Position numbers and translations under genes: made by a program. Shown here piece by piece: positions 1,780 to 58,442 of a stretch of 64,000 bases of DNA. Every line of letters begins with the position of its first letter. Positions within the stretch are counted from its first letter, which is position 1. The notes below the pieces were generated by a model. That model searched no databases and was not told the DNA's origin. It saw only the letters and a list, made by a program, of their open reading frames with translations. The stretch is taken from positions 17,448 to 81,447 of the forward strand of contig SVOJ01000007.1 in the NCBI GenBank assembly GCA_015066385.1, given 5' to 3'. The DNA comes from Oscillospiraceae bacterium (GTDB lineage Bacteria; Bacillota; Clostridia; Oscillospirales; Acutalibacteraceae).

Positions 1780-1794
1780 GATAAACCGTAATTT
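1780..1794. repeat. Solo copy of the foldback-element terminus (GATAAACCGTAATTT)
   Basis: It shares the invariant 12-mer AAACCGTAATTT with the right ends of the elements at 13475-13742 and 57921-58442 and with the solo copy at 38491-38509. Confidence 0.5.
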
Positions 1795-8995: not shown

Positions 8996-10237
8996 TTAAG
9001 CAGTTTTACTGTTGAAATAATTCACCGATTCGCCTTCGGTTACTTTTACGCGCAAGGAACCGTCTTGCTGATAAGTATAATCACATTCCGCAACGGTCTT
9101 GTTGCCGGCATAATATTTGTTGCCTGCAAGGCGGCGCGATGCATCAAAAAAGGCATAAAGAGTTGTGTTCTGTGTGAAACTGCCGTCTGTGTGCAGATAA
9201 GGTCTGTTGAAATAAACAACCGTAAAAGAACCGTCCGCATTCAATTCACATACGGAACCCTGCCCGAATGCCTGCCCGACAACCACGGGAGCAGAGCCGA
9301 AATAATCCCCGCCGTCTGCACTGACGGTTTCCGAATGCCTGCCGAATCGGTCATATTGCAGGGTGCAGACGGGAATGCCGTATTCATTATAATTATATTT
9401 CACACTGCCGTCGGCAGAGAATGATGCCTGATATTCGCAAAGGGTTGTGCCGTTTTTGCTGTAAACGGCGGCGGTTGTGTCGAACGTGGCATTCACAACA
9501 ACATACAGGTCAAGTCCCGCATAGAAGGTGCCGTCCGAAAGGCGGTGCGTGCGGTCAGGGAAGTGCAGGGTGTAACTGCCGTCCGCGCCGACGGAAACCA
9601 CGGTGGCATTGCCGAATGCACCGCAGTTGATCCATGTGCCGACCACAATGCCGTAATCGGATGTGAACAACTGTGCGCCGTCAAAGGCAACACTGCGCAC
9701 ATGCCGCATTCTGCCGTTTTCCTGCCATACGCTCACAAAACCGCCGTCCGTACCGTAACGTGCCGTGATTTTTGCGAAGCGATTGTCCGAAAAATCCGTG
9801 TATTCTTTAAAAATTTCTTTGCCGTTTTCATAAGCGGTTTCTATTTTTTTGCAAGCCGCAACCGCACCGTTTGCGAGGGTGTAACCGTAACCCCTGTCGG
9901 CGGTCGCCTGCGAAATGACGGATGCAAGTGCACCGTTTTCATAGTGGAAGTCGGAACGGAACAGAACCGTACCCGTGACGGTGTCATATGTGAATTCCAC
10001 CGCCTTATTGCCGTCTTCATAATTGAATGCGGCATAATAGCAACTGCCGTCGGGGCTGTAAGATGTGACCATTGCACCGCCCGGAACATAAGAGCCGACG
10101 GCGGCATAAGGGGTGGCATTATAGGCGGCAACCGCGGTTTCCGATTGTACCTGAACAGACGGTTGCTGAACATCCTTTTGGCAGGCACAAAGCAGGATAA
10201 GGCACAAAAAAAGCATTGCAAGTATGCACTGTTTCAT
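8996..10237 (-). CDS. Hypothetical lipoprotein
   Basis: I chose the start at MKQCILAMLFLCLILLCAC (signal peptide plus lipobox). The mature part is rich in recurring DGS/DGT-x-Y beta-like segments. Confidence 0.6.
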   Translation of the reverse strand: MKQCILAMLFLCLILLCACQKDVQQPSVQVQSETAVAAYNATPYAAVGSYVPGGAMVTSYSPDGSCYYAAFNYEDGNKAVEFTYDTVTGTVLFRSDFHYENGALASVISQATADRGYGYTLANGAVAACKKIETAYENGKEIFKEYTDFSDNRFAKITARYGTDGGFVSVWQENGRMRHVRSVAFDGAQLFTSDYGIVVGTWINCGAFGNATVVSVGADGSYTLHFPDRTHRLSDGTFYAGLDLYVVVNATFDTTAAVYSKNGTTLCEYQASFSADGSVKYNYNEYGIPVCTLQYDRFGRHSETVSADGGDYFGSAPVVVGQAFGQGSVCELNADGSFTVVYFNRPYLHTDGSFTQNTTLYAFFDASRRLAGNKYYAGNKTVAECDYTYQQDGSLRVKVTEGESVNYFNSKTA

Positions 10238-10451: not shown

Positions 10452-11591
10452 TTGGAAGGTGAAAACAAACGTATCTCCGAAGGAAAGTTGTTGTATGATC
10501 CGCTGTTTGATAAAAAACCGGATGTAAAAATCAGTGATGATCCCACAAAAGGCTTTTTCGGAAAGGCAATCATCAAAAAAGCGGCATTCGTGGTTATGTT
10601 GCTCATTTTTGTGTTTATTTCCATGTTTTTCAGTTTTAATTCCATTGCCAAAGATCTGTTTGCTTTTAAGGATAACGGCGACGGAACATTCATGCTCGAC
10701 GAATACCACGGCGGCAACCGCAATGTTCTGACGATTGACTATGTCAGAAGTGAAGAGAATATTCCCGATGCAACAAAACCCGTCACTTCGGTGCGCCGTT
10801 TTGCCGTGTGCTGTGACGAGTCGGTCAATTTCATTTTTATCGGCAAAGATGTGACGGAAATCGACTCCAAATCCTTTTACACCTGCAAAAATCTGTATGC
10901 GGTGATCGTAGATGCGGAAAATGAGAACTTTATTTCTTCGGACGGAGTGCTTTACAAATGTGTTGACGGCATGCCGACGGAATTGGTGCTGTATCCCATT
11001 GACAACGGCGAATACCGCACCGCATTGGCAATGGGTGTAAAAACACCTGCTTCTGCGGAAGATGTTCCCGCATTTCTTGCGGAAATCAAGCCGCTGATTG
11101 AAGCAGAAAAAAACGCCCAACCGGACGAAGACGGCAAAATGACCAAAAATGAATTTGATCTGCGTTTTGATGAAATCGGCACAAAATATGCAATTGCCGA
11201 AACGGTAACGGCGGTCGGAGAACTCGGCTTTGCCTATGCCGACAGATTACAGCAGATCAGTATTCCCGAAAAATTACAGCAAATCGGCAATCTTGGTTTC
11301 TTCAAGTGCCATCAGCTGCAGGCAATTTACCTGCCTGACGGACTTGTTTCCATCGGTTCGGATGCATTCACGGAATGCAGAGGACTGACCGATCTGTTCA
11401 TTCCCGCATCTGTTGAAACCATCGGTCACCATGCGTTCCACAAATGCGACAATGTTCCCGTTGTTCGTATGGCTGTTTCCGAAGAAGAAGCAAAGGAAAT
11501 GGAACTCGGACAGAATTGGTTGCCGCAGCAAAGAAAAGTATTGATGAAAGACATCGGTGTTGCCTATAATGACGCAAGGGAGGTGCATTAA
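10452..11591 (+). CDS. Membrane-anchored BspA-type leucine-rich repeat protein
   Basis: TTG start after AAGGGAGGG. One TM helix (AAFVVMLLIFVFISMFFSF). The C-terminal repeats IPEKLQQIGNLGFFKC, LPDGLVSIGSDAFTEC and IPASVETIGHHAFHKC are typical of LRR_5. Confidence 0.7.
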   Translation: MEGENKRISEGKLLYDPLFDKKPDVKISDDPTKGFFGKAIIKKAAFVVMLLIFVFISMFFSFNSIAKDLFAFKDNGDGTFMLDEYHGGNRNVLTIDYVRSEENIPDATKPVTSVRRFAVCCDESVNFIFIGKDVTEIDSKSFYTCKNLYAVIVDAENENFISSDGVLYKCVDGMPTELVLYPIDNGEYRTALAMGVKTPASAEDVPAFLAEIKPLIEAEKNAQPDEDGKMTKNEFDLRFDEIGTKYAIAETVTAVGELGFAYADRLQQISIPEKLQQIGNLGFFKCHQLQAIYLPDGLVSIGSDAFTECRGLTDLFIPASVETIGHHAFHKCDNVPVVRMAVSEEEAKEMELGQNWLPQQRKVLMKDIGVAYNDAREVH

Positions 11592-11592
11592 G

Positions 11593-13422
11593 ATGGCAGG
11601 AAAAGCAAAAGCATTTCTGACGGATATACGTCTTCACTGGAAAGAAGCAGACAGAAGCAAAGGCAGATATGTTTCGTTCCGTGAATATCTTGACATCTTC
11701 ATGGGTGTTACCTTCAATTACGGCGCACAGGCACCTTTGGGTTACATCGGATTCAGCGCAGGTTGTTACCTGATTATGTACCACTATGACCTGCCGTATC
11801 TTGCATTCTCCGTCATTTCACTCATCGGCATTCCGCTGAGTTATCTGTGGAATATCTTGGGCTGGCTTGTTTCCGACAATCTCGGTTTTATGCCAAAAAA
11901 GATGGAACGTACGGTTTATTCCATTTATTTGTCCGCTTTTGCATTGGCATTGTTCTTGTTGATTTTTGATGTGTCTTCGTTCCTGCCTGCGGACAGTCGC
12001 CTCATCCTCTTTCTCAACAGTCTTTCGGGCATCAATGCAAAGAGTTTCTTCAAAATTTTCGGCGTACAGCTTCTTTGCAGCGGCTTCGGCGGCGCAAGAG
12101 GTATTTTCTGGCGCAAACTGCTTGTTCCCAAGTTCGGCAGATACAAATATATTCTTTATTCCGATGTGGTGCAGAAGTGCATTATGATTATCCTCATCGG
12201 CTGGCTTCCCGTTTATAATGTGCCGGATGTCAATGACCGTCTGTGGATGGCATATCTGCTGTTCAGCCTGTACGGTTTGTATGATTTCGGCAACCGTATG
12301 GAAAGTTGTACGCAGGTTATCAGTCCCAATCCCGAAGAACGAATGATCGTGCGTGCTTACCCTGTCAAGATCGCGCATCTGCTCAATTCCGTGTTTGCGG
12401 CGGTCATTCCCGTGCTCGGCGCATTTGATGACATCAATTTCTTCCGTTGGGTCATCCCCGGTGTGTTCATTCCCTGTGCTCTTATTACACTGTATTTTGC
12501 AAAGAATGTCAAAGAGAGAATTCCGCAACCGCCCATTGAAAAGAAACAGCAGGTTTCGTTCTGGTACGGCATTTTCAGTGTGCTTCGTAACAAATATCAC
12601 CGACTCAACACCATTTCGGGCCTTATCGACTCTCTCGGTAACGGTATGATTGCGCTCAATACCGTTATTTTCCTTTACACACTGCGCCTGAGCGGGCTGG
12701 AATACAGCCTTGTGGCAAGTCTGCTGTGGGCATTCAGAGGAACCATTCCTGCCTTGCTTTCGCCCATTGTTCTTAAGCATTTCTCGTTCCGTCAGATGGC
12801 AATTTACAAGCAGATCGTGGAAGTTGTCAGCACGCTGATGAGCATTCTTGCGCTGACATATCTCGGGGACAATATCATCCTGTGCGGTTGGGTGCTGTTT
12901 GCATCGTTGTGGATCAGAGGCTTCATCATCGAACCTGCCAATTTCGCAAAGAGCGACATGAGCATCCGTCTGAACGACTATCAGATGTATCTGTCGGGCG
13001 AACGTATGGAGAGTTTTACGGGTGTATACGGTTGGTTCACAAGCCCTGTTACCACACTTGTCGGTCTGATTATCCCCGTTCTGCTTCTGCACAACGGCTT
13101 CAACAGCAACTGGGACGTTTTGTTCCTGGACGATGCAAGATTTGATATTCTTGTCATCCCGCTTTTGTTTGACCTTGTCGGCCATGCGCTGATGATCATT
13201 CCCTATATTTTCTGGGACTACAACACACCGCAGTATCTGTATGCCATGAAAGTTCTGCAACAGCGTGCACAGCTTGCGGAAGAAGGCTACACACCTGCCA
13301 ATTATGAAGGCGGTCTGGATTTTGAAGCAGGCGATGATGTCAAGAACGGTCTTCCCGCACACATCCGTCATCTGAAGTTTGAAAAACCGCCTAAAAAGGA
13401 AAAACAAAAAGTTGCAAAGTAA
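11593..13422 (+). CDS. Divergent GPH/MFS_2-like polytopic membrane protein
   Basis: Start MAGKAKAF is preceded by GGGAGG. It shares SPNPEER and DYQMYLSGERMES motifs and an N-terminal segment with the 743-aa protein at 1848-4079. Confidence 0.6.
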   Translation: MAGKAKAFLTDIRLHWKEADRSKGRYVSFREYLDIFMGVTFNYGAQAPLGYIGFSAGCYLIMYHYDLPYLAFSVISLIGIPLSYLWNILGWLVSDNLGFMPKKMERTVYSIYLSAFALALFLLIFDVSSFLPADSRLILFLNSLSGINAKSFFKIFGVQLLCSGFGGARGIFWRKLLVPKFGRYKYILYSDVVQKCIMIILIGWLPVYNVPDVNDRLWMAYLLFSLYGLYDFGNRMESCTQVISPNPEERMIVRAYPVKIAHLLNSVFAAVIPVLGAFDDINFFRWVIPGVFIPCALITLYFAKNVKERIPQPPIEKKQQVSFWYGIFSVLRNKYHRLNTISGLIDSLGNGMIALNTVIFLYTLRLSGLEYSLVASLLWAFRGTIPALLSPIVLKHFSFRQMAIYKQIVEVVSTLMSILALTYLGDNIILCGWVLFASLWIRGFIIEPANFAKSDMSIRLNDYQMYLSGERMESFTGVYGWFTSPVTTLVGLIIPVLLLHNGFNSNWDVLFLDDARFDILVIPLLFDLVGHALMIIPYIFWDYNTPQYLYAMKVLQQRAQLAEEGYTPANYEGGLDFEAGDDVKNGLPAHIRHLKFEKPPKKEKQKVAK

Positions 13423-13430
13423 ATAAATTA

Positions 13431-13470
13431 AAAAGCAGTTCCGTTTCGTTGCGGAGCTGCTTTTTCTTTT
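13431..13470 (+). terminator. Rho-independent terminator
   Basis: GCAGTTCCG ... CGGAGCTGC stem followed by TTTTTCTTTT. Confidence 0.65.
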
Positions 13471-13474
13471 AGCT

Positions 13475-13742
13475 GTAAATTACGGTTTGGTGGGGAGTAG
13501 CCAATCACGGGGACGAGTACCCTGATTGACTCTATGATATATCCAAAACAGTCAATCTGGGTTCCGTCCCCTGATTGGCGGCGATGTTTTTGGATATTTA
13601 TTTGTATTATTTTGTTTAAATTTGTGTGTGGTCGTAAATCAGGGGACAGTACTGCGATTGACATTTTGGAAAAATGATTATGTCAATCACAGTAGCCGTC
13701 CCCATGATTGACTCCCCAACTCCCCGCTAAACCGTAATTTGC
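13475..13742. mobile_element. Foldback MITE-like element, copy 1 (~268 bp, non-coding)
   Basis: Its termini GTAAATTACGGTTTGGTGGGGAGTAG (13475-13500) and CTCCCCGCTAAACCGTAATTTGC (13720-13742) are inverted repeats. The ~95-nt arms are imperfectly complementary around an AT-rich centre. Confidence 0.6.
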
Positions 13743-13800
13743 ATTTCCCTTAATCAAAAAATGCAACAACTTTCCGTGAAGAACCAAAAAAAGTCTTATT

Positions 13801-14289
13801 TCAGTTTGTCGGTGTATGATCAACCTGCAATTCCATATAGCGTTTTCGTTCCGTGTAACCGAGTTTTTCATAAAAGGGAAGCGCCGAATCGGGTACATTC
13901 CACACGTTCAGTGTCACACAGTCGCAGTTGCTTCGTGTTGCTTCTTCCTGTGCTTTTTGCATCAGCAAGGTTGCCGTGCCTTGTCCTCTGCAAACGGGGT
14001 CCACAAACAGATCATCCACATACAACTCTTTTCTGTCCTGCAACAAAAGGTGATCTTTCACCGTCTGCAGAATGCAGAAAACATAGCCGCAAACACCCGC
14101 ATCTTCGGCTACAAAAATACGGTATGTTTCATCTGCAAGCAAGGCTTGCAGTTCGGTGGTGGTGTATTTTGCCGCCCCTGTTTTGAAAATATCGGGCCGC
14201 GCCTGCCCATGAAAAGCAGCAATAGAAAGAAGCATTCTGTGTAAATCGGGAATATCGTCGTTGTGTGCGGCACGGATACGGACAGCCAT
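13801..14289 (-). CDS. GNAT family N-acetyltransferase
   Basis: 162 aa with an acetyl-CoA-binding type segment VDPVCRGQGTATLLMQKA. Confidence 0.75.
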   Translation of the reverse strand: MAVRIRAAHNDDIPDLHRMLLSIAAFHGQARPDIFKTGAAKYTTTELQALLADETYRIFVAEDAGVCGYVFCILQTVKDHLLLQDRKELYVDDLFVDPVCRGQGTATLLMQKAQEEATRSNCDCVTLNVWNVPDSALPFYEKLGYTERKRYMELQVDHTPTN

Positions 14290-38490: not shown

Positions 38491-38509
38491 CCCCGATAAA
38501 CCGTAATTT
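38491..38509. repeat. Solo copy of the foldback-element terminus (CCCCGATAAACCGTAATTT)
   Basis: Its reverse complement AAATTACGGTTTATCGGGG is identical to part of the left terminus at 57923-57941. It abuts the apbE stop codon. Confidence 0.55.
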
Positions 38510-57920: not shown

Positions 57921-58442
57921 GTAAATTACGGTTTATCGGGGAGTAGAAAGTTGGTCGCTCGTCAGTCACATTAAAAGTTTTGGTCAAGCTTTTTCAAAAG
58001 CTTGTGGGTTCAAAGGGCAACGCCCTTGCCGCTCGTCGCAACGAGCGGAATTCCTTATGCTTCAAAAAGCGCAGGAAAGTTTTTAAGAAAACCCTCGCCG
58101 GGGGTTTTCTTAAGTGCGAAGCACTAAACGAACTAACGGAACTTTTATGGTAAATTGATAAACGAACATTACAAATTTAATTTATTTATTATTTTATAAT
58201 TAAGTTAACTGTGTTTAATGTTGTGCTGTCGCACAATAGAGAACCCCCGGCGAGGGTTCTCTACGAAAAACAGTCCACCGGACTGTTTTTCTACTCTCCT
58301 GCGCTATTGGGCGGAATGGGGATTTCGCCCGTTGCGACGGGCGACGAAAGGCTCCGCCTCTCGACACCGCAAACTTTTGAAAAAGTTTGATCAAAACTTT
58401 TAACGACTGACGATCAACACACACCGACAAACCGTAATTTAT
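57921..58442. mobile_element. Foldback MITE-like element, copy 2 (~520 bp, non-coding)
   Basis: The left terminus GTAAATTACGGTTTATCGGGGAGTAG (57921-57946) nearly matches copy 1, and the right end is CCGACAAACCGTAATTTAT (58424-58442). The arms are long imperfect inverted repeats built from short hairpins around an AT-rich centre. Confidence 0.6.

Follow-up and report, generated by a model that had tools for sequence, protein, structure and literature searches.

A probable REP/BIME-type palindromic element of gut Clostridia and the conserved intergenic slots that it shares with unrelated repeat families

Introduction

REP and REPIN sequences are short extragenic palindromic repeats which, together with the genes of REP-associated tyrosine transposases (RAYTs), form the so-called REPtrons, described in Enterobacteria and Pseudomonas (Nunvar 2010, PMC2817692; Bertels and Rainey 2011, PMC3116915). 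High-frequency repeats flanking the gene have been reported only for RAYT groups 2 and 3, and group 1 has merely been noted in Clostridia (Bertels 2017, PMC5581495). So far, REP/REPIN sequences and domesticated transposases have been studied almost only in Proteobacteria. In E. coli, REP units are also found in BIMEs (bacterial interspersed mosaic elements), which are mosaics of units in alternating orientation with set linkers, sited after genes and between convergent genes. In addition, TIRtrons (or TIRYT) are known, in which a tyrosine transposase gene stands between inverted repeats belonging to a dispersed family (Di Nocera 2013, PMC3733652).

The element described here can be compared with all three systems. 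It shares with the REP/REPIN-RAYT systems the short extragenic palindromic units, the inverted doublets of units that form hairpins, the near-single-copy Y1 transposase gene flanked by its own units in inverted orientation, the absence of target duplication and the restriction of the repeats to one lineage. It differs from them in its host, a genus of gut Clostridia, and in its unit, which has a GGGGAC core between CAATCA and TGATTG stems, whereas the known REP is a GTAG-tagged GC stem. Moreover, the RAYT here carries a stop codon, and the units travel as a fixed four-unit composite of 266 bp inside a second terminal motif. With the BIMEs it shares the mosaic of alternating units with set linkers and the position after a gene and between convergent genes; unlike them, it has defined inverted outer termini, which are common to unrelated interiors. 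Some TIRtron repeats are GGGG-rich (GGGGWSAS, PMC3733652), and unit 3 of the present element, GGGGACAG, is alike in this respect. What is new is an element of the REP/BIME kind in Clostridia with slot-and-cassette behaviour; its unit is distinct, its transposase gene is decaying, and its structure has two layers.

Structure of the Insert

The window is the whole stretch of 64,000 nucleotides that was analysed; it lies on contig C6 of the assembly that holds it (G000; 3.17 Mb, 52 contigs). At window positions 13476-13741 there is a foldback insert of 266 bp, which reads TAAATTACGGTTTGGTGGGGAG ... CTCCCCGCTAAACCGTAATTTG. An earlier note on this DNA had placed an insert of about 268 bp directly after the terminator of the upstream gene, and this was confirmed: the intrinsic terminator of the 621-aa gene (11557-13422) occupies 13430-13471 on the + strand, with a hairpin at 13430-13465 and then a T-run, and the insert starts 5 nt past this T-run. 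On the other side lies a convergent GNAT acetyltransferase gene (13801-14289), whose stop codon is 60 nt beyond the insert end. The ends, which had been described as inverted repeats matching at 19 of 21 positions, do form 19 Watson-Crick pairs within those 21 nt, and the terminal inverted repeat as a whole pairs 13474-13498 with 13719-13743 (25 nt, 88% complementarity). The arms are imperfect reverse complements, as had also been noted, with 50 nt at 76% and 31 nt at 77%.

The left slot terminus, TAAATTACGGTTTGGTGGGGAG (13476-13497, + strand), is composed of the 12-mer AAATTACGGTTT, two variable bases and a CGGGGAG-like sequence, and the right slot terminus, CTCCCCGCTAAACCGTAATTTG (13720-13741, + strand), is the most variable part among the youngest copies. 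Between them, the four CAATC..GGGGAC..GATTG units recognized in the earlier note were all recovered, with their limits slightly revised. Unit 1, at 13502-13528 on the + strand, reads CAATCA-CGGGGACGAGTACCC-TGATTG and has GTAG in front; unit 2, at 13553-13577, is on the - strand (CAATCAGGGGACGGAACCCAGATTG); unit 3, at 13636-13660 on the + strand (AAATCAGGGGACAGTACTGCGATTG), starts with AAATC, not CAATC; and unit 4, at 13684-13710, is again on the - strand (CAATCATGGGGACGGCTACTGTGATTG). The consensus of these REP-like units is about 26 nt long, CAATCA-GGGGAC-N9-11-TGATTG, and its orientation alternates across the four. The GTAG tag is found before unit 1 and within unit 4, and is missing at units 2 and 3; GTAG-tagged hairpins are clear in a second family of repeats, the 314-bp family, which will be discussed below.

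Units 1 and 2 are predicted to pair into a left REPIN-like hairpin (13499-13581), and units 3 and 4 into a right one (13634-13714). The AT-rich central spacer between them (13582-13633) was searched for a promoter-like site, and none was found. Two folds are predicted to be possible for the whole element, namely a single long foldback or a Y with two arms, each arm being a hairpin. The predicted folding energy is -129.1 kcal/mol (z = -12.8) on the + strand and -121.9 kcal/mol (z = -12.3) on the - strand, so that z is about -12.5 against shuffled sequence on both strands, and the earlier description of the insert as a foldback is borne out. Rfam gave no match at gathering thresholds, and chance-level hairpin matches only at E up to 1.

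Copies of the Element in the Genome

The element is a multi-copy, non-coding, non-autonomous selfish repeat. In G000, its 266-bp family comprises 12 full-length copies (75-100% identity), five fragments cut by contig ends and two truncated copies, and further copies occur in the related genome G007. Together with the presence/absence polymorphism between species, this agrees with the family of non-autonomous elements proposed in the earlier note. The six youngest full-length copies are 98.5-100% identical to one another; eight of the 278 columns of their alignment vary, and five of these eight fall in the last 22 columns, i.e., in the right terminus. The C14 copy is a chimera in which a 314-type left end is joined to a 266-type body, with the junction inside the interior. 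The end signature GGTGGGGAGTAG is common to another family in the closest relative, G050.

No flanking direct repeat, and hence no target-site duplication, was found at any of the 12 copies. Clean comparisons with G050 gave no support either to a split target (AAATTT or AATT) or to target duplications of 2-9 nt. Self-comparison of the genome revealed no long multi-copy element with these ends. As for empty sites within the species, four loci were checked, and every contig found was filled; the six metagenome contigs at the C6 site all have one orientation, which is a weak test of inversion. In a relative at about 92% identity, the flank contigs end within the element, and short element-matching contigs are at least 99% identical while the flanks differ by 8%; these contigs are 4-5 times deeper, so that several copies have probably been merged in them.

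Nearly all contig ends of G000 fall in some repeat. Metagenome contigs from other samples (loci L068 and L070) join the C6 locus to the flank of another copy, and these are probably chimeras that arose in assembly across the repeat. This is a warning that repeats of this kind give rise to chimeric joins when metagenomes are assembled.

The Outer Termini

The outer end pattern can be written as TAAATTACGGTTT-RY-CGGGGAG; position counts over 109 ends show that the conserved part consists of the 12-mer, two variable bases and CGGGG. With the 16-mer AAATTACGGTTTRYCG and up to two mismatches, 126 ends were found in G000, dispersed over most contigs. They form 33 left-right pairs with spans of 31-606 bp, and about 60 ends are solo. 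The size classes of the pairs include minimal hairpins of 41-42 nt, the family of 264-266 bp and several families of about 510-540 bp. Within the window, the 21-nt end is matched three times where chance would give none, including at 13720-13740 on the - strand and at 57923-57943. As the earlier note had observed, the termini recur around a different interior: a second slot at 57923-58440 (+ strand) has identical termini and an unrelated interior of 518 bp. The solo ends that it listed are likewise real, one at about 1783-1794 (- strand), beside a short hairpin and after a terminator of the other strand, and one at 38498-38509 (- strand). Excision of a whole element would leave a junction of CCGTAATTT joined directly to AAATTACGG.

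The ends tend to lie behind terminators. A perfect-stem terminator is present within 50 nt outside 14% of the ends versus 0.6% of random positions, and a run of five Ts within 20 nt of 24% versus 5.5%, enrichments that are overstated because the control positions included coding DNA. About 16 ends have CCCACAACTTTCCGTGAAGAACC and an A-run 10-30 nt outside them, including the right side of the window copy, where this outer accessory repeat, GCATTTCCCTTAATCAAAAAATGCAA-CAACTTTCCGTGAAGAACC-A(n), occupies 13741-13792 on the + strand; it adjoins about 16 termini genome-wide. Some slots lie between the arms of an outer inverted repeat, GGTTCTTCACGGAAAGTTGTGGGAT ... ATCCCACAACTTTCCGTGAAGAACC, of which G000 has about 16 copies and G050 many more; its sites include window 13741-13792 and, in G000, C21:132080-132310, C33:109770-109970 and C44:21800-22420, and in two places it stands directly upstream of a ribosome-binding site.

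No end pair in G000 encloses a transposase. In the sole pair separated by more than 650 bp, a MATE transporter gene and other ordinary genes lie between the ends, and the pair was therefore rejected as a parent element. Phage and plasmid collections contained no match to the element, and a scan of viral contigs for the terminus gave single matches per contig only. The insertion-sequence ends that are collapsed at G000 contig ends all differ from these termini.

The RAYT Gene and Its Flanking Units

On G000 contig C23, a gene at positions 9192-9956 exceeds the cut-off of 80 bits for NCBIfam NF047646 (REP-associated tyrosine transposase) with a score of 85.4 bits, and reaches 63-65 bits with PF01797. 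On its two sides it has inverted copies of CAGGGGACGGTTCTATG (17 of 17 bases), of which the upstream one is part of a full unit, CCAATCAGGGGACGGTTCTATGATTGAC, and the downstream one overlaps the stop codon. The same 17-mer is also present inside 266-like copies of G007. The same arrangement surrounds the RAYT homologues of G015 (67% identity) and G018 (46%), and in G018 the stem of the unit has co-varied to AGACA. The four units of the insert are cognate repeats of the C23 RAYT, and therefore this is DNA of the REP/REPIN/BIME type, so that the element no longer stands outside the named families, as it did in the earlier note. In total, 67 units were found in G000, 61 of them in or beside slots; the six elsewhere include a stand-alone doublet at C33:165374/165437 and units by a RAYT remnant on C35.

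Around the RAYT, the outer AAATTACGGTTT termini are absent; in this, and in the protein scoring as a RAYT, the system differs from the TIRtrons. The reading frame of the C23 gene is interrupted by a single TGA, at the position of a conserved Trp in the intact G018 protein, and the gene was called as two in all five metagenome contigs read. Because of this stop and this split, the C23 RAYT may be dead. G050 and G007 retain C-terminal RAYT fragments only. In the surrounding region (C23:8500-10500; locus L250, with metagenome loci L275 and L276), the gene is located just downstream of a 2560-aa RHS/YD-repeat gene, and its upstream unit sits within the 3′ end of an orphan reading frame of 105 aa.

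Distribution among Relatives

The exact terminus pattern has 50 matches in G000, 83 in G007, 80 in G050, 26 in G012 and 12 in G052, and at most one in each of 56 other genomes of the genus and order, which delimits a subclade of five species. Where G000 and G050 have ACGG, G007 mostly has ATGG. A scan of all-species genomes for the terminus returned mainly chance single matches; the genomes with several matches were labelled Acutalibacteraceae or Clostridia from goat or sheep gut, so that the present genus is probably one of the Acutalibacteraceae. One goat MAG contained a pair of ends 5.4 kb apart, which looks like two separate small elements. The 266-bp family itself is abundant in G000 and G007, and related arms occur in G003. 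Some G007 copies are 99% identical to G000 copies, and their flanks about 80% identical.

The unit core is more widely spread: of the 37 genomes of the genus, 25 contain it, and 24 other families do not exceed background level. Eight of the genus's genomes have 8-37 matches each, and outside the genus there are about none. In several genomes the core is found in same-strand clusters, e.g., at G050 C64:33559-38868.

Occupancy of the Slots in Related Species

In order to read the corresponding sites, the flanks of the 12 full-length G000 copies were joined and searched against the relatives, and the loci were then read. In G050, where the flanks are 87-100% identical, nine of the 12 sites hold an unrelated repeat family of 314 bp (at one of them as a 103-nt derivative). 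At five of these nine sites the boundaries are base-identical by sequence; the remaining four were assigned from adjacent coordinates, which for two of them agree only to within 11-21 nt. The boundaries are identical at C22 and C38, and at C17:62210, where the 103-nt element has a different interior. At C7, a 314-bp copy begins at the left boundary, and the right boundary has been kept; this copy is split over two contigs, and its right end resembles a 266-type end. At C10, C14, C17:15467, C32 and C47, the coordinates of 314-bp copies abut the flanks (to within 11-21 nt for C32 and C47). Three further G050 sites are occupied by the same family, with base-identical boundaries; their G000 counterparts are a 536-bp element, a 111-nt element and the second slot of the window (57923-58440). 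The copies of this family in G050, at 96-100% identity, number at least 12 in full and about 20 at contig ends; G000 has remnants only.

The other three sites of G050 hold less. At the C6 site, i.e., that of the window copy, there is a 58-nt deletion derivative with the same boundaries, G007 has a minimal palindrome of 30 nt, and G012 a degenerate relic. At C13:82427, a bare TAAACCGTAATTTA is left, which is a deletion between two TAAA repeats. At C19:2279, a site that follows the stop codon of trkH and precedes the ribosome-binding site of trkA, there is nothing in G050, G007, G012 and G003; G000 has an insertion there that is new to its species. It consists of 20 nt of extra sequence, the element and 14 nt of extra sequence, with no duplication, and the search for a donor of the extra sequence gave only a weak 42-nt resemblance in G050. 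Because of its position, this copy (C19:2245-2560) is probably co-transcribed within the operon.

Replacements were seen against G007 and G012 too. Where G000 contains a member of a family of about 520 bp, the G007 occupant is a 266-bp copy, and G007 also carries copies at sites without any in G000. At C22 the 266-like occupant is common to G000 and G007, so that the change there happened in G050. The terminal 12-mers at one slot sometimes differ between species; consequently, exchange by homology in the ends alone does not explain everything. The 314-bp copy at G050 C16:63588-63900 has two flanks that map to different G000 contigs, C22:17647 and C18:16185, and G000 keeps a 27-nt remnant at C18:16158. 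The split flanks may reflect a rearrangement through the repeats.

Discussion

Taken together, the insert is probably one copy of a composite extragenic palindromic element of the REP/BIME type (BIME/REPIN-like), mobilised by an HUH enzyme, with the contents of its slots replaced by recombination at shared ends. Judging from the units around the gene, the RAYT, a Y1 HUH enzyme, would mobilise the units. HUH enzymes act on folded single strands, and this would explain both the hairpins and the absent target duplication. The outer motif defines conserved intergenic slots, mostly just downstream of terminators, whose boundaries persist between sister species while their contents are swapped for unrelated repeat families. 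The replacement itself may proceed by recombination or gap repair, with the shared termini as homology. In Drosophila, P-element replacement (targeted transposition by gap repair) swaps an element for another with the same ends at the exact site and leaves the flanks untouched; since the P element is a eukaryotic DDE transposon with target duplication, it can serve as an analogy for the mechanism only. The evolution of REP sequences by gene conversion is an old idea (Higgins 1988, as cited in PMC3733652), and a literature search brought up no case in which one repeat family had taken the place of another at a given site. Several observations count against the REP/BIME-type reading, namely the stop and the split of the C23 RAYT, the absence of the outer termini around that gene, the terminal 12-mers that differ between species at one slot, the occurrence in G007 of copies 99% identical to those of G000 though the G007 RAYT is only fragmentary, and the unexplained extras of 20 nt and 14 nt outside the termini of the C19 insertion.

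The MITE-like label of the earlier note, if taken as that of a classical MITE, would make the element an internal-deletion derivative of a DDE-type insertion sequence, moved in trans via its 22-nt inverted ends. The terminal inverted repeats (25 nt, 88% complementarity), the inverted ends common to many size classes, the copies that break the assembly, the patchy distribution within the genus and the one insertion new to the G000 species are all as a MITE would have them. It is nevertheless an unlikely explanation, because target duplication is seen at none of 12 copies, nor at the insertion that is new relative to G050, and because no autonomous element or transposase-bearing master copy with these ends was found in G000 or in the phage and plasmid collections, the insertion-sequence ends collapsed at contig ends being all unlike these termini. 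The right end is, moreover, more variable than the interior among the youngest copies, and random transposition is not expected to give replacement at identical boundaries. That replacement, with exactly conserved boundaries, unrelated interiors swapped, no target duplication and some slots occupied by minimal palindromes of 30-42 nt, would suit ends that are the sites of a site-specific recombinase, with the interiors as exchanged non-coding cassettes in the manner of folded integron attC sites or Xer-dependent modules. Here, however, each boundary is half a site and not a full recombinant site, the attC cores RYYYAAC / GTTRRRY are absent (the ends being AAATTACGGTTT), the sites are dispersed rather than arrayed, no recombinase is linked to the ends, and the junction of the chimeric C14 copy falls inside the interior, so that this explanation is improbable as well. 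Of the ideas in the earlier note, that of a recombination module agrees better with how the slots behave from one species to another.

If the element instead served the host as a structure, whether as an insulator, as a back-up to the terminator or as a hairpin that stabilises mRNA, it would be kept by selection and not by mobility. The strong predicted fold, the enrichment of ends after terminators (14% versus 0.6%) and the identity of at least 99% among the element contigs of the relative at about 92%, despite the 8% difference of the flanks, speak for it. It is very unlikely all the same, for the same slot holds unrelated sequences in sister species, slots are empty or cut to 14-58 nt without visible consequence, and Rfam has no match. 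More speculatively, and with some doubt on our part, the AAATTACGGTTT termini could mark dedicated docking slots for non-coding DNA, between which unrelated palindromic cassettes are exchanged precisely, driven by some enzyme or by the RAYT acting on folded ends. If so, one family could spread through every slot of a genome, as happened with the 314-bp family in G050, and there would be a cassette-exchange system for selfish hairpin DNA instead of ordinary transposition.

The most striking point is that, at a divergence of a few percent, the same intergenic positions hold completely different repeat families, with boundaries that are base-identical wherever read. If this is confirmed, the system could be used to measure competition and replacement among intragenomic repeat populations.

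Other Mobile Genes and Repeats

Two other genes were considered as mobilisers and set aside. The IS200-type tnpA at C52:87821-88294 has ends unrelated to the terminus motif; it is intact and single-copy with typical hairpin ends, G007 and G050 each have a similar gene in single copy, and the left end of the G007 one adjoins a 266-like element. The other is a second Y1-like gene, located in G052 at 1.2 kb from a terminus; it has no homologue in G000. Lastly, about 19 G000 contig ends stop in one insertion sequence with the ends CAGACTGTCGAAAAA..., for example those of C11, C28, C29, C31, C39, C40, C43, C7 and C8, and of C14, C15, C18, C25, C2, C5 and C38. This insertion sequence is always located directly after a terminator-like hairpin, and one of its copies interrupts a 314-type element.
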